Source of the DNA: Oscillospiraceae bacterium
GTDB lineage: Bacteria > Bacillota > Clostridia > Oscillospirales > Ruminococcaceae
Length of the DNA stretch: 64,000 nucleotides
NCBI GenBank assembly: GCA_021199355.1
Contig: JAJQIF010000016.1
Span: 10,230-74,229 of the forward strand
Direction: 5' to 3'
Made by a program: the position numbers and the translations under genes. The notes beneath the pieces are model-generated. The model was not told the origin of the DNA. It saw only the letters and a program-made list of their open reading frames with translations, and made no database searches. Below, one piece after another: positions 3,375 to 53,949 of this stretch. Numbering within the stretch: position 1 is the stretch's first letter; every line of letters begins with the position of its first letter.

Positions 3375-3842
3375 ATGGCTAAATCTCAGGGTGAGCGGAT
3401 TATTGCCGAGAATCGGCAGGCGCGGCACGAATACTTTGTTTTGGATACTTTGGAAGCCGGCATCGAATTGGTCGGCACCGAGGTCAAGTCCATTCGCTTG
3501 GGCGGCGTGAACCTCAAGGACAGCTGGTGCGAAATCCGGGACGGCGAGATTTTTGCCGTCGGCGTGCACATCAGCCCCTATGAAAAGGGCAACATCTATA
3601 ACCGCGACCCGCGGCGCGACCGCAGGCTCCTCATCCACAAATCGGAGATAAGACGGCTTTACGACAAGGTCCGGCAGGAGGGACTGACGATTGTCCCCCT
3701 CAAGCTCTACTACAGCGGCTCGAGGGTCAAGATGCAAATCGGGCTCTGCAAGGGCAAAAAGCTCTATGACAAGCGCGACGACATGGCTCGCCGCCAGACC
3801 GAGCGGGACATTGAGCGAGTCCTCAAAGAACGCAACCAATAA
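3375..3842 (+). CDS. smpB: SsrA-binding protein SmpB
   Basis: 155 aa with the typical SmpB sequence (ENRQARHEYF..GTEVKSIR..LLIHKSEI..KGKKLYDKR). tmRNA lies immediately downstream. Confidence 0.95.
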   Translation: MAKSQGERIIAENRQARHEYFVLDTLEAGIELVGTEVKSIRLGGVNLKDSWCEIRDGEIFAVGVHISPYEKGNIYNRDPRRDRRLLIHKSEIRRLYDKVRQEGLTIVPLKLYYSGSRVKMQIGLCKGKKLYDKRDDMARRQTERDIERVLKERNQ

Positions 3843-3844
3843 CC

Positions 3845-4195
3845 GGGGGCGTAAAGGTTTCGACGGGGATTCCGAAGGCGAATAAGCGAGTAGAGAACGC
3901 ACTGATCTCTTTAACCTGTGCAAACCTAAATTTTAAACGACAATAATAGTTTAGAATTGGCTGCTGCCTAATAGCGGCCCGTCCTGCCGATGAGTACTGC
4001 GGCATCGGTCTGGGCGTCGATTAGCAGTGAACGTTCTGCGGTAACTCCGGTAGCCGCAGGATGAATTACCGGATACCGAAGTCACAAGCCTGCTTACCGG
4101 CGTGAGATTTCGGAAATCCAAAAGATAAGCTACACTCGTAGAAAGTTCTCCCAAAGAGTTTTCGGACATGGGTTCGATTCCCATCGCCTCCACCA
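3845..4195 (+). ncRNA. ssrA: tmRNA (SsrA)
   Basis: 5' GGGGGCG pairs with 3' CGCCTCC, followed by ACCA. T-arm GGGTTCGATTCCC. Internal tag frame ..AAC GAC AAT AAT AGT TTA GAA TTG GCT GCT GCC TAA TAG (..NDNNSLELAAA**) at about 3936-3974. Confidence 0.92.
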
Positions 4196-10514: not shown

Positions 10515-11966
10515 TTAGCTCACCGTTTCCGCATCGGGGTCGTATGCCGCGATGGATTCGTTCAGAGCGTTGATGTAGTAGTCAAGCTGTTCGTTATAGG
10601 TCTCCTTGAGCTGTGCCCATGTTGTGGGCTCCTCGGAATAGGCGTTGCCTTCGTAGCTGTAGAGAACCGCATAGAGCTTGTCGCCGTAGCCTTCGTAGTA
10701 GGTGATGACAACCTTGTCAATCTGAGTTGTGAGGTCGTAGCACTCATCCCACATGTCGAGCATTTCCTGAGTCCACATGTAGGTCTCCTCGAGCTGAATT
10801 CTGTCGATGTCGACAACTGTCGGGTCGAGAACCTTGAATCTCATGCAAGCCGCCAGAAGCGCAACGCCCTCGGGGTTCGAAGCACCGTTTACGATGCAGT
10901 AGCCGTCGGCTGTCGATTCCATGTAGTAAACGCCGTCGCCGTCATCATCTCTGGGAAGCGGAACGAACATGACTTCGCCCTCTTCGATGTCGCCCCAGAC
11001 GGAGTTGACGTTCTCAACCGTGTCGGTGAATTCGGAAGTCTCTGCGATGCAGAAGAGCTGAAGTCCTTCCTTGATACCGCCGCCGGAAACGCCGTTGCGG
11101 ATTGACCAGCTCTTGTTCCAGAGCGGATATACGCACTCGTTCTTGCCGAGGTTATAAAGAAGGTTCGCCGCACGCTCAACGGCAGGTGAATCTATATTAC
11201 TCTCAAACTGCTGTGTTTCGGTGTTATACTGGATTATCATCTCGCCACAGGAGTGCATCAGAGCCGCACTGTAGTACCATCCGTCAAGGGCATATCTGTC
11301 CTCATCGACGTCGGAGAAGTCTACGCACATCTCATAGAATTCGTCCCAGGTCCACTCGTCGTTCCAATAGAGCTCGGCGGGGTCGTCATAACCGAATTCC
11401 TCGATGACTCTTCTGTTGTAAACCACAACGTGACCGAAAGCGTTATCATAAACGATGACATAGGGTCTGTCCTTGAGGGAATAGTAGTCATAGGCGAATT
11501 CCTTCTCGCCTTCCCAAAGCGGGTCGTCATAGTCTATGTAGGTATCGACCGGCTGGAACATGCCCTTGATGCAGTTTGTCGGGAAGACCTCGTTGCCGCC
11601 CGGGTAGAAGTCGGGTGAGCTTGAAGCCAAGATAAGGTTTGCCAGTTCGTCAAAACGTGTATCCCAAGAGCACTCGTACCACTCGATAGAGCAGCCGTAC
11701 TTCTCCTGGAACGTCCAATAGCCTGAATTGATGATTTCATCGTCGGAATAGTTCTGCATATCGTCATACCATGCGAACCAGACGATGGTTGAATTTGCCG
11801 CAGATGTCTCTTCAACAGTCGGAAGATAAACGCCCGCCGCATTAAGGATAGCCTCGGCATCCTGTGTAGCGAAAGTAAGCTGAACTACCTCTTTATTTGC
11901 ACTGCCGCAACCGACCAAAGAAATAATCAGTATTCCGGCAAGAAGAAGCGAAATTACCTTCTTCAT
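10515..11966 (-). CDS. Extracellular solute-binding-like lipoprotein, paralog 1 (orphan, no permease nearby)
   Basis: Start reassigned to ATG 11966 (GGAGGTG SD; MKKVISLLLAGILIISLVGC|GS lipobox). The longer track ORF runs through its own promoter. About 70% identical by eye to 12552-14009. Confidence 0.6.
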   Translation of the reverse strand: MKKVISLLLAGILIISLVGCGSANKEVVQLTFATQDAEAILNAAGVYLPTVEETSAANSTIVWFAWYDDMQNYSDDEIINSGYWTFQEKYGCSIEWYECSWDTRFDELANLILASSSPDFYPGGNEVFPTNCIKGMFQPVDTYIDYDDPLWEGEKEFAYDYYSLKDRPYVIVYDNAFGHVVVYNRRVIEEFGYDDPAELYWNDEWTWDEFYEMCVDFSDVDEDRYALDGWYYSAALMHSCGEMIIQYNTETQQFESNIDSPAVERAANLLYNLGKNECVYPLWNKSWSIRNGVSGGGIKEGLQLFCIAETSEFTDTVENVNSVWGDIEEGEVMFVPLPRDDDGDGVYYMESTADGYCIVNGASNPEGVALLAACMRFKVLDPTVVDIDRIQLEETYMWTQEMLDMWDECYDLTTQIDKVVITYYEGYGDKLYAVLYSYEGNAYSEEPTTWAQLKETYNEQLDYYINALNESIAAYDPDAETVS

Positions 11967-12026
11967 TAAAGCACCTCCAAAAAGAATTTTGCTAAAAAGC
12001 TTGTCTAAAAAAAGCCTGCTTTTTTT

Positions 12027-12055
12027 ATTATACACCTTTTCACAAGCAAATTCAA
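12027..12055 (-). promoter_or_regulatory. Sigma-A promoter of lipoprotein paralog 1 (TTGAAT-17-TATAAT)
   Basis: Minus-strand hexamers with a 17-nt spacer. The homologous sequence is found upstream of paralog 2. Confidence 0.6.
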
Positions 12056-12124
12056 TTCAGCATAATAGACAAGAAACGGGGATTGATTTTGTGCAGGTTG
12101 CACAGAAGAAACCGCTGTATAAGC

Positions 12125-12153
12125 AATAAAAAAGCTGTTGACAAAACAACAGC
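12125..12153 (-). terminator. Terminator of the small-peptide mRNA (locus 1); its stem contains the -35 of the antisense promoter
   Basis: Minus strand GCTGTTG-TTTTGT-CAACAGC followed by TTTTTTATT. Confidence 0.65.
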
Positions 12154-12166
12154 GATGGAGTATAAT
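12138..12166 (+). promoter_or_regulatory. Consensus sigma-A promoter of the antisense RNA (locus 1)
   Basis: TTGACA-17 nt-TATAAT, perfect hexamers. Confidence 0.75.
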
Positions 12167-12172
12167 AAAAGA

Positions 12173-12307
12173 GGTGAGAGGATAGGTTACGGACAAAGTC
12201 CCTAACTTAGCCTGAATTGCAGTTCAGGCGACGGTCACTCTTTCCAATAATCAAAGACCATTAGTTAGAATGCCGCGCTGAATCAATCAGACGCGGTTAT
12301 TTCTTCT
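12173..12307 (+). ncRNA. Candidate type I antitoxin / antisense RNA (locus 1)
   Basis: No ORF. Starts about 7 nt after the -10. Internal hairpins (CCTGAA..TTCAGG). Ends at hairpin 12273-12296 plus TTATTTCTTCT. Complementary to the 3' UTR and last codons of the convergent peptide gene. Confidence 0.55.
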
Positions 12308-12389
12308 GGTTAGAACCCACGGTGTAACCAACAGTAAAGGCAGTCAAGAGCAAAGCTAAGACCTCCAAGATTATAGAAATAATCTCCAT
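12297..12389 (-). CDS. Candidate type I toxin: 30-aa hydrophobic peptide MEIISIILEVLALLLTAFTVGYTVGSNQKK
   Basis: GGAGGTG SD 7 nt upstream of the ATG. Single TM-length helix plus KK tail. Own consensus promoter. Paralog at 53099-53188. Confidence 0.6.
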   Translation of the reverse strand: MEIISIILEVLALLLTAFTVGYTVGSNQKK

Positions 12390-12440
12390 CAGCGTCACCT
12401 CCTCTCACGAGGAAAGAGTAGCCAACCTCTCACTGTCGAC

Positions 12441-12469
12441 ATTATAGCATATAAATTGACAACTGTCAA
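12441..12469 (-). promoter_or_regulatory. Consensus sigma-A promoter of the small-peptide gene (locus 1)
   Basis: Minus strand TTGACA-17 nt-TATAAT. The -35 sits in the palindrome TTGACA-GT-TGTCAA. Confidence 0.75.
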
Positions 12470-12470
12470 C

Positions 12471-12497
12471 AAAAAGCCACCCTTTCGGGTGGCTTTT
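12471..12497 (-). terminator. Terminator of lipoprotein paralog 2
   Basis: GCCACCC-GAAA-GGGTGGC followed by T5 on the minus strand. Confidence 0.8.
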
Positions 12498-12551
12498 CTA
12501 ATACTAAGCGGTTTTTGCGGGAATATCGGGATTACTATCCGGGATAGGCTA

Positions 12552-14009
12552 CTATCCTTCGTAGTCATTCATCTGATACGGGTCGTAGGAATCAATCTGG
12601 GCGTTCAGCTCGGCTACATAGTACTCAAGCTGTTCGTTATACGATTCCTTGATCTGTGCCCATGTGGAGGCATCAGAGGAGTCTGCGATTGACTCGTACT
12701 TCTCGGTTACAGCCTGAAGCTTGTCGCCCAAGCCGGAATCGTAAACGACGATGAGGTTTTCTGCGGACGATGCAAGTCTGTAGCACTCGTCATACATGTC
12801 GAGCATTTCCTGAGTCCAGAGGTAGGTTTCCTCGAGCTGGATACGGTCGATGGAGATAACAGTCGGGTCGAGAACCTTGAATCTCATGCAAGCCGCCAGG
12901 AGCACAACGCCTTCGGGGTTCGAAGCACCCTGAACGATGCAGTAGCCGGAAGCGGCAGACTCGGTGTAGTAGTAGCCGTCGCCGTCGTCATCTCTGGGGA
13001 GAGGAACGAACATGAGCTCGCCATCGGTGACATCGCCGAATACAGCGCTGATTTCCGCAACGGTTCCGGTGAATACCCATGAACCACGGATGTAGAAGAG
13101 AAGAAGTCCTTCCTTCATGCCGCCGCCCTCGGTGCTGTTACGGAGGCTCCAGCCGTTATTCCATCTCGGATAGATGCAGTCGTTCTTATTGAGGTCATAG
13201 AGAAGCTGTGCCGCACGCTCGATAGGCGCAGAATCAACGTTGATTTCATACTGCTGTGTCTCGGTGTTGTAGACAATTATCGTCTCGCCACTCGAGTGCA
13301 TGATACCGTGGTTATAACCCCAACCGTCAAGAGCATATCTGTCCTCGTCAGGGTCGGAGAAGTCAACGCACATCTCATAGAATACGTCCCATGTCCACTC
13401 GTCGTTATAGTAGAGCTCGGCGGGGTCGTCATAGCCCCATTCTTCCATAACTCTGCGGTTATAAGCAACAACGTTGCCGAAGGTGTTATCAAAGATGATT
13501 ATGTAGGGTCTGTTCTTGATTGAGAAGTAGTTGTAAGCATAGTCCTTCTCGTCTGCCCAAAGCGGGTCGTCATAGTCCATGTAGTCGTCAACGGGGACGA
13601 ACATGCCCTTGATACATCTTGTCGGGAAGATTTCGTTATCTCCGGGGTAGAAGTCGGGAGAGTTGGAAGCCAAGATAAGAGTTGCAAGCTCGTCATATCT
13701 TGTTTCCCAAGTGCATTCATCCCACTTGATTGCGCAGCCATACTTCTCCTGGAAGGTCCAGTAGCCGGAATTGATAATTTCATCTTCCGAATAGTTCTGC
13801 ATGCCGTCATACCAAGCGAACCATCTGACTGTGGAGCCAGCCGCCGCAGTTTCCTCTGCATCGGGAAGATAGATACCTGCTGCATTGAGGATGTCTTCAG
13901 CGTCCTGGGTATTGAACGTGAGCTGAACAACCTCACGCGAGGAGCTTCCACAGCCGACCAAAGCGATAATCATTAGCCCTGCCATAAGCATTGCGATGAT
14001 TCTTTTCAT
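12552..14009 (-). CDS. Extracellular solute-binding-like lipoprotein, paralog 2
   Basis: Start reassigned to ATG 14009 (AGGAGG SD; MKRIIAMLMAGLMIIALVGC|GS). Collinear homology with paralogs 1 and 3. Confidence 0.6.
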   Translation of the reverse strand: MKRIIAMLMAGLMIIALVGCGSSSREVVQLTFNTQDAEDILNAAGIYLPDAEETAAAGSTVRWFAWYDGMQNYSEDEIINSGYWTFQEKYGCAIKWDECTWETRYDELATLILASNSPDFYPGDNEIFPTRCIKGMFVPVDDYMDYDDPLWADEKDYAYNYFSIKNRPYIIIFDNTFGNVVAYNRRVMEEWGYDDPAELYYNDEWTWDVFYEMCVDFSDPDEDRYALDGWGYNHGIMHSSGETIIVYNTETQQYEINVDSAPIERAAQLLYDLNKNDCIYPRWNNGWSLRNSTEGGGMKEGLLLFYIRGSWVFTGTVAEISAVFGDVTDGELMFVPLPRDDDGDGYYYTESAASGYCIVQGASNPEGVVLLAACMRFKVLDPTVISIDRIQLEETYLWTQEMLDMYDECYRLASSAENLIVVYDSGLGDKLQAVTEKYESIADSSDASTWAQIKESYNEQLEYYVAELNAQIDSYDPYQMNDYEG

Positions 14010-51426: not shown

Positions 51427-51642
51427 ATGACCGTTACGGCAACAGAATTCAAAATGAACCTCGGAAAATACCTCGTTCTTGCGGAAACCGAGGACGTATT
51501 TATCTCGAAAAACGGCAAAGTAAGCGTCAAGCTTGTCAACAGCAATCAGGATAAGGTCGAGGCAATGCGGTCTCTCTTCGGAATTCTCCCGTCGGACATT
51601 TCTCTTGAAGAAGCCCGGGAAGAGAGGCTCGGGAAGATATGA
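51427..51642 (+). CDS. Type II antitoxin, Phd/YefM family
   Basis: 71 aa; N-terminal VTATEFKMNLGKYL pattern. 4-nt overlap with the PIN gene. Confidence 0.75.
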   Translation: MTVTATEFKMNLGKYLVLAETEDVFISKNGKVSVKLVNSNQDKVEAMRSLFGILPSDISLEEAREERLGKI

Positions 51643-52064
51643 ACGTAATTGTGGACACCTGCATCATCATCGACGCTCTCGCCAACCGTGAGCCGTTTGC
51701 GGGGGACGCCCAGGCACTTTGCCTTTCTGTTGCAAACGATGAAATCACAGGATTTATCCCCGCGAAATCCGTTGCGGACATCTACTATATCATGCACAAG
51801 TGCTTCCACAGCGATTCGCAGACCCGGGAACTGCTGAAAAAGCTCTTTATGTCCTTCGGCATTCTCGACACCACTGCCCTTGACTGCCGCAACGCCCTGA
51901 CTTCCCCGATTTCCGACTTCGAGGACGCCATCCTCGCCGAAACCGCCTATAGATGCGGCGTGGATTACATCGTCACGAGGAATACGCGTGACTTCGCCCG
52001 CTCCGTTGTGCCGGTGGTGACGGCTGGGGAGATTATGGAGATGTGTGGGGATAATTCATTATGA
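51639..52064 (+). CDS. vapC: Type II toxin, PIN-domain ribonuclease VapC
   Basis: 141 aa; VIVDTCIIIDAL N-terminal acidic motif, later D/E residues (FEDAI). Confidence 0.8.
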   Translation: MNVIVDTCIIIDALANREPFAGDAQALCLSVANDEITGFIPAKSVADIYYIMHKCFHSDSQTRELLKKLFMSFGILDTTALDCRNALTSPISDFEDAILAETAYRCGVDYIVTRNTRDFARSVVPVVTAGEIMEMCGDNSL

Positions 52065-52963
52065 ACGAAACCAGAAATCTTACCGCCGAGGAATGGGCGG
52101 AATTTGCAGGGGTATTTGAGAAAGCCGGGGTTTACAGCCCCGATTCGGTGCGGAGATTCGTCGATACCCGCCTCAACAAAATATACGACGTCTTCCTATT
52201 GGACGGCAAGCTTGTGTTGAAGAAGTCCGATCGCGACAAGGAGAAGTTTGAGAATTATTTCGCCGGTCACGGCTTCTCGGTCCCGCTTGTTGTCTCAAGC
52301 TTTCGGCATGGCGACGACTGCTGGGTGACTATGCCGTATATAGACGGCACGGACGCAAGAGATTGCTCGCCCGAGGATGCAGAGAAAGTCGGCAGGGAGC
52401 TCGCGAAAATTCAGAGCTACTATCTCGGCACCGGTACCAATCCCGACGGGTGCAAAAGCTACTTTGACCGCAAGGTTCTTCGGTTCTGGGAGAAGAGCCG
52501 CAAGTATTTTCCCGAATACAGCGACATTTTCGGAGCAATCGAAGCCCGTTTCTTTTCGGCTCCACGGACACTGATTCACGATGATTTTCTCCCGATAAAC
52601 GCTCTTCTGGACGGCGAAAACGCCTGGCTCATCGACTGGACGTATGCCGACATTCTCCCCTACTTTCTGGACTTGGGGCGGTTCGCCTTTGTCGGGTACG
52701 AAGATGGCAAGCCGTACATCTCCACCGATTCCGCAAAGGCGTTCCTTGAGGCTTACTACGAAGAAATGCGCCGGAATCCCCGGTTTACAGTTAACAGGCA
52801 GGAATTCTCCCGCGACACCGCCATCTCCGCCTTCTGCCAGTACTCAATGTTTGTATATTTCGAGGAAGAGGAAAAAGTGAAAGAGTCAGAGGATTATCGC
52901 ATGCTTGGGGAGATTCTTGGGTATCTTGATAAGGAATTTAAAAGCACAAAAAAATCCTCTTGA
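52061..52963 (+). CDS. APH/choline-kinase-like phosphotransferase
   Basis: 300 aa. Brenner motif LIHDDFLPINAL and LIDWTYA (DxD-like) loop. ATGA overlap with vapC. Confidence 0.7.
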   Translation: MNETRNLTAEEWAEFAGVFEKAGVYSPDSVRRFVDTRLNKIYDVFLLDGKLVLKKSDRDKEKFENYFAGHGFSVPLVVSSFRHGDDCWVTMPYIDGTDARDCSPEDAEKVGRELAKIQSYYLGTGTNPDGCKSYFDRKVLRFWEKSRKYFPEYSDIFGAIEARFFSAPRTLIHDDFLPINALLDGENAWLIDWTYADILPYFLDLGRFAFVGYEDGKPYISTDSAKAFLEAYYEEMRRNPRFTVNRQEFSRDTAISAFCQYSMFVYFEEEEKVKESEDYRMLGEILGYLDKEFKSTKKSS

Positions 52964-52971
52964 CAAAGAGG
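52946..52971 (-). terminator. Terminator of the small-peptide mRNA (locus 2); its stem contains the -35 of the antisense promoter and the kinase stop codon
   Basis: Minus strand CCTCTT-TGTC-AAGAGG followed by ATTTTTTTG. Confidence 0.6.
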
Positions 52972-52988
52972 AAGAAGTGGCATATAAT
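52960..52988 (+). promoter_or_regulatory. Consensus sigma-A promoter of the antisense RNA (locus 2)
   Basis: TTGACA-17 nt-TATAAT. Confidence 0.75.
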
Positions 52989-52994
52989 AAAAGT

Positions 52995-53108
52995 AGCGAG
53001 AGGGTTGCCTGAACGCCAATTCAGACAACACGGTCACTCTCCGAACAAATAATGTTACAGGAAAGCGAAGCTGTTTTTGACCATCCGGTCAAGGACAGCT
53101 ATTTCTTT
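52995..53108 (+). ncRNA. Candidate type I antitoxin / antisense RNA (locus 2)
   Basis: No ORF. Shares the block CGGTCACTCT with the locus 1 RNA. Ends at the 14-bp hairpin 53069-53100 plus ATTTCTTT, which is the complement of the Lys-Lys-stop codons. Confidence 0.55.
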
Positions 53109-53188
53109 GAGCTATTGCCGATGGTAATGCCCAAATTGATAGCCGAAATCAGCAAACCCAGAAGTTGAATCATAGTTGAAACGTCCAT
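53099..53188 (-). CDS. Candidate type I toxin: 29-aa hydrophobic peptide MDVSTMIQLLGLLISAINLGITIGNSSKK
   Basis: AAAGGAG SD 8 nt upstream. Homologous to the 12297-12389 peptide (..G.T.G.N..KK* tail). Own promoter. Confidence 0.6.
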   Translation of the reverse strand: MDVSTMIQLLGLLISAINLGITIGNSSKK

Positions 53189-53238
53189 GAGCATCACTCC
53201 TTTCCGTTCGGAAGAAGTGACTGCCTCTCGCTGAATGT

Positions 53239-53267
53239 ATTGTATCATATAAAGAACTTATTGTCAA
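53239..53267 (-). promoter_or_regulatory. Sigma-A promoter of the small-peptide gene (locus 2), TTGACA-17-TACAAT
   Basis: Minus-strand hexamers. The -35 lies within the palindrome ATTGACAAT. Confidence 0.7.
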
Positions 53268-53282
53268 TCTTTGCCGGAAATT

Positions 53283-53460
53283 TTGTATTATCAGCTTGAA
53301 GTTGATATAAAGAAACAACCGCAACATAGTATAGCGGTTAGCGGTCAATCTTCAAGTTTTTGAATTTTAGAGGTTGTACCCCAAACTGCTGGAACAGTTT
53401 CGTCTCCTCATGTCATTACTATACGTCATTCATCCCTCTTTGTCAAGAGGCTTTTTTATT
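53283..53460. ncRNA. Convergent promoter/terminator pair without an ORF (possible overlapping sRNA pair or decayed TA copy)
   Basis: + strand: TTGTAT-17-TATAAA (53283-53311), then hairpin CCTCTT-TGTC-AAGAGG plus T-tract (53435-53460). - strand: TTGACA-17-TATAGT (53446-53418), then AACCGC..GCGGTT plus U-rich (53339-53305). Confidence 0.4.
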
Positions 53461-53595: not shown

Positions 53596-53949
53596 ATGTC
53601 AATGCCGGTGCCGGTATACAGAGGAGAGATTTATTATGCGGACTTAAGTCCCGTAATTGGCAGTGAACAAGGAGGAATCCGTCCCGTACTTATAGTTCAG
53701 AACGACGTTGGAAACCGTCATTCGCCGACGGTCATCGCCGCCGCTATCACAAGTCAACGGGAAAAGACCCACCTGCCGACGCATATCGAGATAGACTCGA
53801 ACTCATGCGGGCTCGCAAAGGATAGCATTGTTCTTTTGGAGCAGATTCGCACGATTGACAAAAAGCGCTTGAAGGAGCGCATGGGCGTTTTGGACCAGAC
53901 CTCTATGGACAAAATAAATCAGGCACTTGCCGTGAGTTTAGGAATGTAG
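53596..53949 (+). CDS. mazF: MazF/PemK-family endoribonuclease toxin
   Basis: 117 aa; RGEIYYADLSPVIGSEQGGIRPVLIVQND..., typical MazF/EndoA. Confidence 0.9.
   Translation: MSMPVPVYRGEIYYADLSPVIGSEQGGIRPVLIVQNDVGNRHSPTVIAAAITSQREKTHLPTHIEIDSNSCGLAKDSIVLLEQIRTIDKKRLKERMGVLDQTSMDKINQALAVSLGM

Follow-up and report, generated by a model that had tools for sequence, protein, structure and literature searches.

A candidate chromosomal type I toxin-antitoxin-like module with a 3'-overlapping antisense RNA in gut Oscillospiraceae

Introduction

Antitoxin RNAs that overlap the 3' end of a toxin mRNA and act through RNase III have already been described (PMC5848175). [quoted passage not shown] In Fst/RNAII and SprA1/SprA1AS, 5'-end sequence elements of both RNAs matter for their interaction (PMC8594479). 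[quoted passage not shown]

The locus described here (locus 1), found in a 64-kb stretch of Oscillospiraceae DNA (the window), resembles the Bacillus subtilis pairs txpA/RatA, bsrG/SR4, bsrE/SR5 and yonT/SR6 in its Firmicute host, convergent genes and sigma-A promoters. Further likenesses are a single-helix toxin (28-60 aa) with a basic C-terminus, a Shine-Dalgarno sequence (SD) partly buried in the mRNA, and an antisense RNA of ~100-200 nt directed at the toxin mRNA, where it pairs with the 3' end or the 3' UTR. RNase III-dependent decay, known from those systems, is only expected for the family of locus 1 (PMC5848175; layouts in PMC8594479). The layout shared with these Hol_Tox systems denotes a shared working principle and is not evidence of homology. 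We consider it likely, from comparative sequence analysis, that locus 1 is a chromosomal type I TA-like module of a previously undescribed family.

Results

Genomic setting and promoters of locus 1

Locus 1 is flanked by two co-oriented paralogous genes encoding solute-binding lipoproteins of housekeeping type, and an exact look-up of the neighbouring lipoprotein returned no match. No obvious mobile element is seen around the locus. The 516-bp gap reported by the first-pass annotation holds for a GTG start at 12035; with the lipoprotein start placed at 11966 (MKKVIS...), as is likely, it widens to ~585 bp. Its statement that the gap contains no credible ORF of at least 60 aa stands, since the mechanical TTG-start ORFs touching the gap (63 and 78 aa) are unconserved and not credible. 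The full extent of the module is 372 bp (12094-12465), and it is missing between the same two genes at the syntenic site of the close relative GCA_020861185.1, an indel-like presence/absence polymorphism.

Two facing promoters, proposed in the first-pass annotation and recovered here with 12/12 sigma-A matches, border the locus: a TG-extended toxin promoter, TTGACA-17-TATAAT (12441-12469, minus strand), and an antisense (antitoxin) promoter, TTGACA-17-TATAAT (12138-12166, plus strand). A counterpart of the toxin promoter is found in all intact family loci. Perfect TTGACA-N17-TATAAT sites occur three times in the whole 64-kb window versus 0.00 expected from 100 shuffles, and all three belong to locus 1 or to the paralogous locus at 52955-53267, with none elsewhere in the window.

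Alternatively, the region could belong to a neighbour, as 3' UTR or read-through RNA of the lipoprotein gene upstream or as 5' UTR of the one downstream, with the promoters as chance matches. Its position between two co-oriented paralogous genes fits this reading, which we nevertheless regard as extremely improbable. A strong terminator of the upstream gene itself (12476-12493, followed by a T-run) separates that gene from locus 1, so the locus is not simply the 3' UTR of that gene, and a second terminator, that of the locus itself, precedes the downstream gene. Chance alone predicts 0.00 perfect promoters, the relative lacks the module between the same genes, and elsewhere the module occurs in many unrelated contexts. 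The concern raised earlier, that the region might belong to the 3' UTR of the second paralogue, is thus answered by both terminators and by the absence of the module in the relative.

Predicted architecture of the candidate toxin mRNA and the antisense RNA

Transcription from the minus-strand promoter, predicted to start near 12434, would yield an mRNA of ~310 nt composed of a 45-nt leader, a 30-codon ORF and a ~170-nt 3' UTR reaching its own terminator; transcript 5' and 3' ends of locus 1 are those implied by consensus motifs. The 5' UTR (12390-12434, minus strand) carries box A GTGAGAGG (12433-12426), box B/anti-SD CTCTTTCC (12418-12411), which forms a hairpin with the SD, and the SD GGAGGTG (12402-12396) itself, 6 nt upstream of the ATG at 12389. 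The leader of ~45 nt with its GGAGGTG SD matches the first-pass description, a length that assumes a start ~7 nt past the -10 box. The 30-codon ORF proposed at 12389-12297 is present exactly as described (12297-12389, minus strand, 30 codons and a stop). This candidate toxin, MEIISIILEVLALLLTAFTVGYTVGSNQKK, has a single helix of TM length, the motif G21xxxG25 and Lys-Lys as its tail. An exact look-up of a 33-aa variant of the ORF returned no match.

The 3' UTR (12125-12296, minus strand) is complementary to the entire antisense RNA and contains the elements GGAAAGAGTGACCGT and CCTCTCACC, which are the complements of box B and box A in the leader of the same mRNA. Its segment CCTCTCAC, in the 12174-12181 region, is the partner of box A (12433-12426) in a predicted 5'-3' lock. 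The mRNA terminator hairpin, GCTGTTG-TTTTGT-CAACAGC (12134-12153, minus strand), is followed by a T-run to ~12125. This hairpin encloses the antisense -35 box, an arrangement common to every family locus, and the mRNA 3' UTR consequently spans the whole antisense RNA.

The antisense gene, with its own perfect promoter and terminator, has a predicted transcript of ~134 nt (12173-12306, plus strand; fold z = -4.7; 92.4 bits against the RNA model), whose structure is conserved and covaries. It begins with box A' GGTGAGAGG (12173-12181), followed by an extra, lineage-specific hairpin (12183-12209), hairpin P2 (12210-12229), the core ACGGTCACTCTTTCC (12231-12245) with an AU-rich linker behind it, and the terminator hairpin (12273-12296). 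The terminal U-tract TTATTTCTTC (12297-12306) is the complement of Gln-Lys-Lys-stop. The terminator and its complementarity to the Lys-Lys-stop codons were thus correctly identified at the outset, and the claimed non-coding plus-strand transcript of ~135 nt agrees with the ~134 nt predicted here, complementary to the 3' UTR of the peptide mRNA by overlap.

A paralogous locus in the same window

The second copy within the window, at 52955-53267, repeats this architecture. Its toxin promoter, TTGACA-17-TACAAT, is TG-extended (53239-53267, minus strand) and its toxin ORF, MDVSTMIQLLGLLISAINLGITIGNSSKK, comprises 29 codons and a stop (53099-53188, minus strand). A perfect TTGACA-17-TATAAT promoter (52960-52988, plus strand) precedes the antisense RNA (52995-53108, plus strand; RNA model 77 bits), which has its terminator hairpin at 53069-53100. 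The toxin mRNA terminator hairpin (52955-52972, minus strand) again holds the antisense -35 box. A third family copy was considered at 53305-53460 and rejected, as the covariance model made no detection there. The loci in the window show no CRISPR association.

Distribution and conservation of the family

The common layout recurs in ~30 loci from at least nine Oscillospiraceae genomes or metagenomes. Scanning one genome per species for the RNA motif recovered 20 loci in eight Oscillospiraceae/Ruminococcus MAGs together with four chance hits, and the layout was identical in 20/20 loci; the same scan of viral contigs gave only one chance match, inside a coding region. Further loci with the same RNA elements (62-86 bits, RNA model) came from an independent scan based on the peptide and from a profile search with a subfamily alignment. 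Carriers of this main group are all uncultured MAGs. Copy number is two in the window and at least four per genome in several MAGs, with divergent paralogues and tandem clusters, and the loci sit in many unrelated contexts with no conserved neighbour gene.

The 3'-overlap layout of txpA/RatA or bsrG/SR4 type put forward in the first-pass annotation gains computational support from this comparison: the same architecture recurs in the ~30 loci, the ORF is conserved and the antisense structure covaries. ORF-preserving conservation in related genomes, which had been set beforehand as a test, was found: every intact copy has an open frame of 28-35 codons behind a well-spaced SD, at a peptide identity of only 31-73%. 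Variable sites per codon position number 13/5/12, 8/4/11 and 6/0/7, with position 2 varying least. Values of pN/pS range from 0.26 to 0.8 in divergent pairs and exceed 1 in some close pairs, where they rest on very few substitutions. Taken from the sequences, these figures suggest purifying selection on the peptide that is only mild, and the conservation of Lys-Lys-stop could be due in part to the antisense terminator U-tract and not to peptide function. In the RNA structure, 98.6% of cells are paired and 7/13 pairs show compensatory change, with a covariation score of 0.377 vs 0.172 in shuffles, equalled by 0/500 shuffles. The RNA elements are more conserved than the peptide. In four degenerate copies the antisense gene persists together with its promoter, but the ORF is truncated or absent; among the family loci, none has an intact ORF without the antisense gene.

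Lachnospiraceae harbour a sister group, seen on at least 1000 contigs and annotated only as hypothetical. It was recovered by peptide-only searches (profile-profile probability 97.7%), and its UTR sequences are unrelated to those of the main group. The cultured type strain Lachnospira eligens ATCC 27750 carries a member (NC_012780.1, ~160,130-160,470, with its ORF at ~160,258-160,350), which makes the family experimentally tractable. When 50,697 phage records were searched by tblastn with the locus 1 peptide (E up to 10), a single match came back, a human faecal phage contig, and this match belongs to the sister group, as do all tblastn matches in the phage and plasmid collections.

These data bear on whether the 30-codon ORF is incidental to a convergent pair of non-coding RNAs or to a small promoter cassette that is mobile and bounded by inverted repeats. 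The ends of the module are similar in inverted orientation (promoter boxes and GTGAGAGG), the module acts as an indel and the peptide is less conserved than the RNA elements, all as such a cassette would have it. Against this, the ORF stays open behind a well-spaced SD in all intact loci at 31-73% peptide identity, variation is least at codon position 2, and searches with the peptide only find loci of the same layout as well as the sister group with unrelated UTRs (97.7% as above). The inverted similarity is moreover limited to functional boxes, and the promoter spacers differ; we hold this explanation to be very unlikely. Mobile-element terminal repeats at the module ends were likewise rejected, the similarity being confined to the promoter boxes and box A with differing spacers.

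A different alternative is a gene for a non-toxic small membrane protein, such as a regulator or an accessory subunit, with expression tuned by a cis-antisense RNA and no addiction or defence module. The position of locus 1 between housekeeping-type solute-binding lipoprotein genes with no obvious mobile element is compatible with it, and so is purifying selection on the peptide, as for any functional small protein. Multi-copy divergent paralogues, tandem arrays, syntenic presence/absence and the lack of a conserved neighbour point the other way. The antisense gene survives in every decayed copy and the ORF alone in none, and toxin control is characteristically marked by a sequestered SD and a very strong antisense promoter (PMC5416894). 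We rate this alternative unlikely, though as the foremost of those weighed here, and retain the TA-like module as the preferred reading.

Predicted 5'-3' pairing and SD sequestration

In the TA-like module, the peptide would be membrane-toxic when made, and a hairpin between the SD and the upstream CU-rich box would keep translation of the peptide intrinsically low. Modelling gives an SD unpaired probability of 0.04 at locus 1 and a mean of 0.11 over the loci, with sequestration predicted for all states modelled. The SD-box B hairpin covaries, with CG<->UA exchanges at two pairs. The plus-strand promoter inside the mRNA terminator would drive the ~134-nt structured non-coding RNA, fully complementary to the 3' UTR, with its terminator U-tract overlapping the last ORF codons. 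Pairing over ~130 nt of the 3' UTR would then lead to RNase III-type decay of the mRNA, in the manner of RatA, SR4, SR5 and SR6 in B. subtilis.

An additional layer may come from the mRNA itself. The 5' end of the toxin mRNA carries the same sequence as the 5' end of the antisense RNA and is therefore complementary to its own 3' UTR, which predicts a hok/AapA1-like 5'-3' lock: the mRNA 5' end would pair over a long distance with its own 3' UTR, and leader and antisense RNA would be rivals for the same 3' UTR segment. In the models, the first 14 nt of the mRNA pair with its own 3' UTR at a mean probability of 0.77. The energy of the 5'-3' duplex has a mean z of -4.06 vs dinucleotide shuffles, and in 13/21 loci at most 1/500 shuffles is as good. 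Cognate 5'-3' pairs are stronger than non-cognate ones in divergent subgroups, and lineage-specific box-A variants (GCGAGAGG, GAUGAGAGG, GGUGGGAGG and AGCAAGAGGG) co-occur in both RNAs. Long-distance pairing in the full-length toxin mRNA is a prediction only, and the box-A likeness of the two RNAs could stem partly from shared promoter-proximal constraints and not from 5'-3' pairing.

Masking the 3' UTR shifts the modelled probability of an unpaired SD from a mean of 0.11 to 0.05, and from 0.04 to 0.06 at locus 1, changes that are small and inconsistent between loci. We accordingly do not claim an SR4-style tightening of SD sequestration by antisense binding, the predicted change being of this kind. 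Blocking of the SD in trans by the CU-rich core CACUCUUUCC of the antisense RNA was also rejected, as SD variants (GGAGGCG) occur with no compensating change visible by eye. Any CU-rich run can pair with an SD.

Searches against known toxin and RNA families

None of 13 family peptides (0/13) matches Hol_Tox (PF16935; TxpA/BsrG) at E up to 1-10; the positive controls BsrG (E ~2e-8) and TxpA (E ~2e-7) are detected. The Fst/Ldr/PepA1 models (PF13955 and NCBIfam NF033608) likewise match 0/13 peptides and recover Fst (E 1e-8) and PepA1 (E 5e-16), both values from NCBIfam. Searches of PHROGs, Pfam and NCBIfam with family peptides returned noise only. The placement of the peptide outside the known type I toxin families thus holds in that Pfam and NCBIfam models catching BsrG, TxpA, Fst and PepA1 miss all 13 peptides.

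Rfam at the gathering threshold reports only tmRNA in the window. A permissive scan of 11950-12600 produced terminator-like noise (best E 0.013, 28.5 bits vs a gathering score of 55), and a scan of the related loci produced no match, so the check for an existing Rfam family, as suggested in the first-pass annotation, yielded none at locus 1 or related loci.

Discussion

The locus provides a comparatively validated RNA and peptide signature for abundant, mostly uncultured gut Oscillospiraceae. If the family is confirmed, Pfam, Rfam and T1TAdb would gain a toxin family and an antitoxin RNA family that are both new, strain-level variation among gut commensals would gain markers, and the compact natural competition among leader, 3' UTR and antisense RNA could be reused as an RNA regulatory device. 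We raise more tentatively, as a possibility that we think less probable than its opposite, that locus 1 is the founding member of an extensive, as yet unannotated superfamily of type I TA systems in gut Clostridia (Oscillospiraceae and Lachnospiraceae), with a leader-mimic antitoxin control new for Gram-positive 3'-overlap systems. Were that so, leader and antitoxin would compete, and a single site would have two alternative fates, the 5'-3' lock or antisense-triggered decay.

Among described systems, the C. difficile pairs CD2517.1/RCd8, CD2907.1/RCd9 and CD0956.2/RCd10 and their prophage homologues share the clostridial host, convergent overlapping toxin and antisense genes and multiple copies, and their toxins share a hydrophobic N-terminus and a Lys-rich C-terminus (PMC6563280). 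They differ, by description, in a length of 34-59 aa and a location beside CRISPR arrays or in prophages, whereas the present loci occur in Oscillospiraceae and Lachnospiraceae and have no CRISPR association in the window.

The B. subtilis systems are unrelated in sequence, Hol_Tox matching BsrG and TxpA but none of the 13 family peptides, and the antisense RNA of locus 1 has no Rfam family. In locus 1, moreover, the 3' UTR covers the whole antisense RNA and the ORF overlap is limited to the last 2-3 codons, the antisense -35 box lies within the mRNA terminator hairpin, and leader and 3' UTR are mutually complementary.

Fst/RNAII (par, pAD1) and SprA1/SprA1AS resemble locus 1 in their Gram-positive hosts, ~30-aa toxins, convergent transcripts and shared terminator region. 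Fst and PepA1 both match Fst models, whereas the locus 1 family does not. The 5' repeats of par make its RNAs mutually complementary; in the locus 1 family, the 5' ends are alike and not complementary, so that both RNAs would compete for the 3' UTR.

With hok/Sok (plasmid R1) and aapA1/IsoA1 (Helicobacter pylori), locus 1 shares 5'-3' closure of the mRNA and a sequestered SD, features that are only predicted for locus 1. [quoted passage not shown] Their antisense RNAs overlap the 5' region or the ORF, whereas the antisense RNA of locus 1 would target the very part of the 3' UTR with which the leader is predicted to pair, its own 5' end being a copy of that leader.

Architecture of the locus 1 module

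Both facing TTGACA-17-TATAAT promoters, the leader, SD, 30-codon ORF and hairpin that the first-pass annotation had described were recovered within 12094-12497, between genes for paralogous solute-binding lipoproteins. On the minus strand of this module (locus 1), a TTGACA-17-TATAAT promoter with a TG extension (12469-12441) is followed by a ~45-nt leader, the SD GGAGGTG (12402-12396) and the 30-codon ORF (12389-12297) of the putative toxin, MEIISIILEVLALLLTAFTVGYTVGSNQKK. The putative antitoxin, an antisense RNA, would be read on the plus strand from its own TTGACA-17-TATAAT promoter (12138-12166) to a terminator hairpin (12273-12296) and the run TTATTTCTTC, the complement of Gln-Lys-Lys-stop. 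To this description we add the peptide mRNA's own terminator hairpin and T-run (12153-12134, minus strand), which enclose the antisense -35 box, so that the peptide 3' UTR spans the entire antisense RNA. The hairpin just 3' of the stop codon lacks a U-tract when read in the mRNA sense and should therefore not terminate the peptide mRNA. The upstream lipoprotein gene has a strong terminator of its own (12476-12493).

Searching the window with locus 1 (tblastn and blastn) revealed a paralogue on the same strand at 52955-53267 (locus 2), composed of a TTGACA-17-TACAAT promoter, a leader, an SD, the ORF of the peptide MDVSTMIQLLGLLISAINLGITIGNSSKK, a hairpin directly next to its stop codon, and a perfect antisense promoter (52960-52988) that lies within the terminator hairpin of the mRNA. 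The two peptides share 38% identity, and the RNA boxes are far better conserved. The 64-kb window contains just three perfect consensus promoters spaced by 17 nt, each of them in locus 1 or locus 2, against a chance expectation of 0.00.

The surroundings of locus 2 are toxin-rich, with a Phd/YefM-like and PIN (VapC-like) pair and an APH-family phosphotransferase at 51427-52064 (+) and 52061-52963 (+), and a MazF/PemK toxin gene (PF02452, E 1e-36) at 53596-53949 (+). The DNA directly upstream of the MazF/PemK gene encodes no recognisable MazE-type antitoxin; the one ORF there is remnant-like and has 12 codons. Another pair of facing promoter/terminator signals lies immediately upstream of locus 2, at 53305-53460. 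Its minus-strand promoter TTGACA-17-TATAGT (53446-53418), inside a hairpin readable as a plus-strand terminator (53435-53450), would yield a ~105-nt RNA ending at the hairpin AACCGC...GCGGTT and GTTTCTTTAT (about 53339-53305). This segment holds no convincing ORF, is not detected by the family covariance model and may represent an antisense pair that is unrelated or has decayed. Elsewhere in the window, a tmRNA gene at 3845-4195 (+) is the sole family to reach the Rfam gathering score (RF00023, 166.7 bits).

Distribution of the family

The source organism lies within Oscillospiraceae, and its rpsT product is present on contigs of GCA_021201135.1 and GCA_020861185.1. A scan of 185,579 species, each represented by one genome, with an RNA motif from the antisense core gave 24 loci: 4 chance matches in Bacteroidota and 20 in eight Oscillospiraceae or Ruminococcus sp. 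MAGs. Each of these 20 is either complete in architecture or a decayed form. Independent, peptide-based routes comprised a profile built from the locus 1 and locus 2 peptides against 1.84 billion protein representatives (seven small unnamed proteins) and a metagenome scan by peptide pattern (seven loci). The main-group (Oscillospiraceae) loci recovered by these routes share the RNA elements, in versions whose cores (GAGTAACCGC, GGGTGACCGT and GAGTAGTCGC) the RNA pattern could not match; they score 62-86 bits with the antisense RNA covariance model. This model detects only locus 1 and locus 2 in the window, and additional copies in loci outside it; one 359-kb contig carries copies in four separate regions, one of them a cluster. 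Locus L012 (400-1200; JAJQHJ010000004.1) is a tandem cluster in which three units stand head to tail within ~800 bp: a variant module, which encodes MSVSEVLQLLELLAVVIFGLLDHRIDKKK from a GTG start and carries box A AGCAAGAGGG, an orphan antisense gene, and a module that is intact.

With the locus 1 peptide, tblastn also hit unannotated intergenic DNA at three places: a megaplasmid of Lachnospira (Eubacterium) eligens ATCC 27750 (NC_012780.1), a second L. eligens plasmid and a human faecal phage contig. These group with metagenome loci L035 and L042-L044 into a sister group whose members have in common peptides of the MLTTELFIAIISLCITCFALGYTIGSKSKK type, a TTGACA-17/18 antisense promoter further downstream, an antisense terminator directly next to the stop codon, and leader/antisense 5' similarity. 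Profile-profile comparison relates the main and sister peptides with a probability of 97.7% (E 2e-12). The sister peptide cluster is present on 1000 or more contigs, named just 'hypothetical' or 'uncharacterized' (e.g., Clostridium sp. CAG:230 and Clostridium sp. L2-50). In L035 (ENA ERZ27247126), from a low-GC organism (33%), the toxin promoter and leader (TTACAA-17-TATAAT...AAGAGCTAC...) are directly repeated ~475 bp apart (1850-1950 and 2325-2420), which suggests tandem modules.

Coding constraint and asymmetric decay

ORF-preserving conservation in relatives, earlier proposed as a check, is evident: no intact locus has an interrupted ORF, and its length stays at 28-35 codons. Counts of variable sites at the three codon positions are 13/5/12, 8/4/11 and 6/0/7 for three subfamilies; the more divergent pairs have pN/pS values of 0.26-0.8, and G21, A17, G25 and the terminal Lys are near-invariant. 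One copy (L027; JAJQGB010000007.1, about 3750-4100) has a 22-nt hairpin inserted between SD and ATG, an SD that is weakened (GGGGCGTG) and extra C-terminal residues that bring the peptide to 35 aa, and may be heading towards inactivation.

The close relative GCA_020861185.1 retains the two lipoprotein genes, the terminator and the downstream promoter of the locus 1 site, with ~142 bp of unrelated sequence in place of the 372-bp module (12094-12465). This replacement (L002, 3165-3305) is edged by the inverted repeats AACCCCTC...GAGGGGTT, contains GC-rich hairpins and may be a different small element in the same intergenic slot. GCA_021201135.1 carries the module; its antisense RNA is unchanged, and the four substitutions all fall in the leader and ORF. 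Four decayed loci keep the antisense gene and promoter with the ORF truncated or gone (L012 4392-4501, L012 757-861, L013 2010-2120 and L017), and no intact ORF lacking an antisense gene was found among the family loci examined, an asymmetry expected if loss of the RNA were costly.

Antisense RNA structure

The antisense RNA follows the consensus 5'-GGUGAGAGG-(optional hairpin)-GCCUGAA-N6-UUCAGGC-ACGGUCACUCUUUCC-(AU-rich linker)-terminator-UUAUUUCUUU. Across 28 aligned sequences, 98.6% of cells are paired and 7/13 pairs show compensatory change; the covariation score of 0.377 (0.172 in shuffles) was reached in 0/500 shuffles. The optional hairpin has the same shape and differing sequence in four lineages. 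Locus 2 (52995-53108) and its orthologue L028 (3210-3348, MAG U.3_2) are nearly identical, the sole notable difference being an inserted perfect hairpin of 26 nt that separates box A, the 5' box, from the antisense hairpin P2. Hairpins of other sequences occupy that position in locus 1, L013 and L029; it looks like a recurrent expansion segment.

Predicted SD sequestration and 5'-3' lock

A local hairpin between the SD and box B, a CU-rich stretch upstream of it, is predicted in all loci, and its loop and closing pairs covary between subfamilies; the predicted probability of an unpaired SD in full-length mRNA averages 0.11 (0.04 in locus 1). A surprise was that the same two boxes, A (GGUGAGAGG) and B (CUCUUUCC), open both the toxin leader and the antisense RNA; the leader and the 3' UTR of the mRNA are therefore complementary. 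Box A varies between loci, and each variant is found in both RNAs at once: GCGAGAGG at locus 2 and its orthologues, GAUGAGAGG in L025, L027 and L031, GGUGGGAGG in L013, and AGCAAGAGGG in the L012 copy L012d. In minimum free energy folds, the 5' end of the full-length mRNA pairs with the 3' UTR at 5/5 loci inspected. In ensembles, the first 14 nt pair with the 3' UTR with a mean probability of 0.77 (locus 1, 0.65; locus 2, 0.60), and duplexes of the 5' end with the mRNA's own 3' UTR have a mean energy z of -4.06 versus dinucleotide shuffles. The sister group shows leader/3' UTR complementarity too, with entirely different sequences, and its cognate duplexes are far stronger than non-cognate ones (L044, -46.9 vs -30 kcal/mol or weaker; L043, -32.4 vs -24 kcal/mol or weaker). 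These predictions point to a hok/aapA1-like long-distance lock on the same segment as the antisense RNA would bind. Masking the 3' UTR shifts predicted SD exposure only slightly and inconsistently. Most intriguingly, the putative antitoxin, by mimicking the leader, may truly compete with it.

Relation to known type I systems

Pfam and NCBIfam models recognise 0/13 family peptides, while they do recognise control toxins (BsrG and TxpA by Hol_Tox, Fst and PepA1 by Fst models, all scoring well), in line with the earlier failure to match the peptide to a known type I toxin family. An Rfam match, named earlier as a threat to novelty, did not appear for either RNA in Rfam 15; PHROGs gave nothing significant for the peptides, and full-text literature searches turned up no paper that describes a type I system from Oscillospiraceae, Lachnospiraceae or L. 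eligens. Within Clostridia, characterised type I systems are those of C. difficile alone, according to a review (PMC6563280).

The proposed 3'-overlapping type I layout is supported computationally by the family-wide architecture, the open ORF and the covarying antisense RNA. The finding is real and, as far as computation goes, the type I toxin-antitoxin interpretation is supported; this is a new candidate family within a known kind of system and not a new kind. Its layout resembles that of B. subtilis txpA/RatA, bsrG/SR4, bsrE/SR5 and yonT/SR6 (PMC8594479), 3'-overlap systems in which duplex formation recruits RNase III (PMC5848175); the likeness to hok and aapA1 lies in the mRNA lock, here only predicted (PMC5416894). 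By analogy, the family would work like the 3'-overlap and hok/aapA1 systems, while being a sequence member of none.
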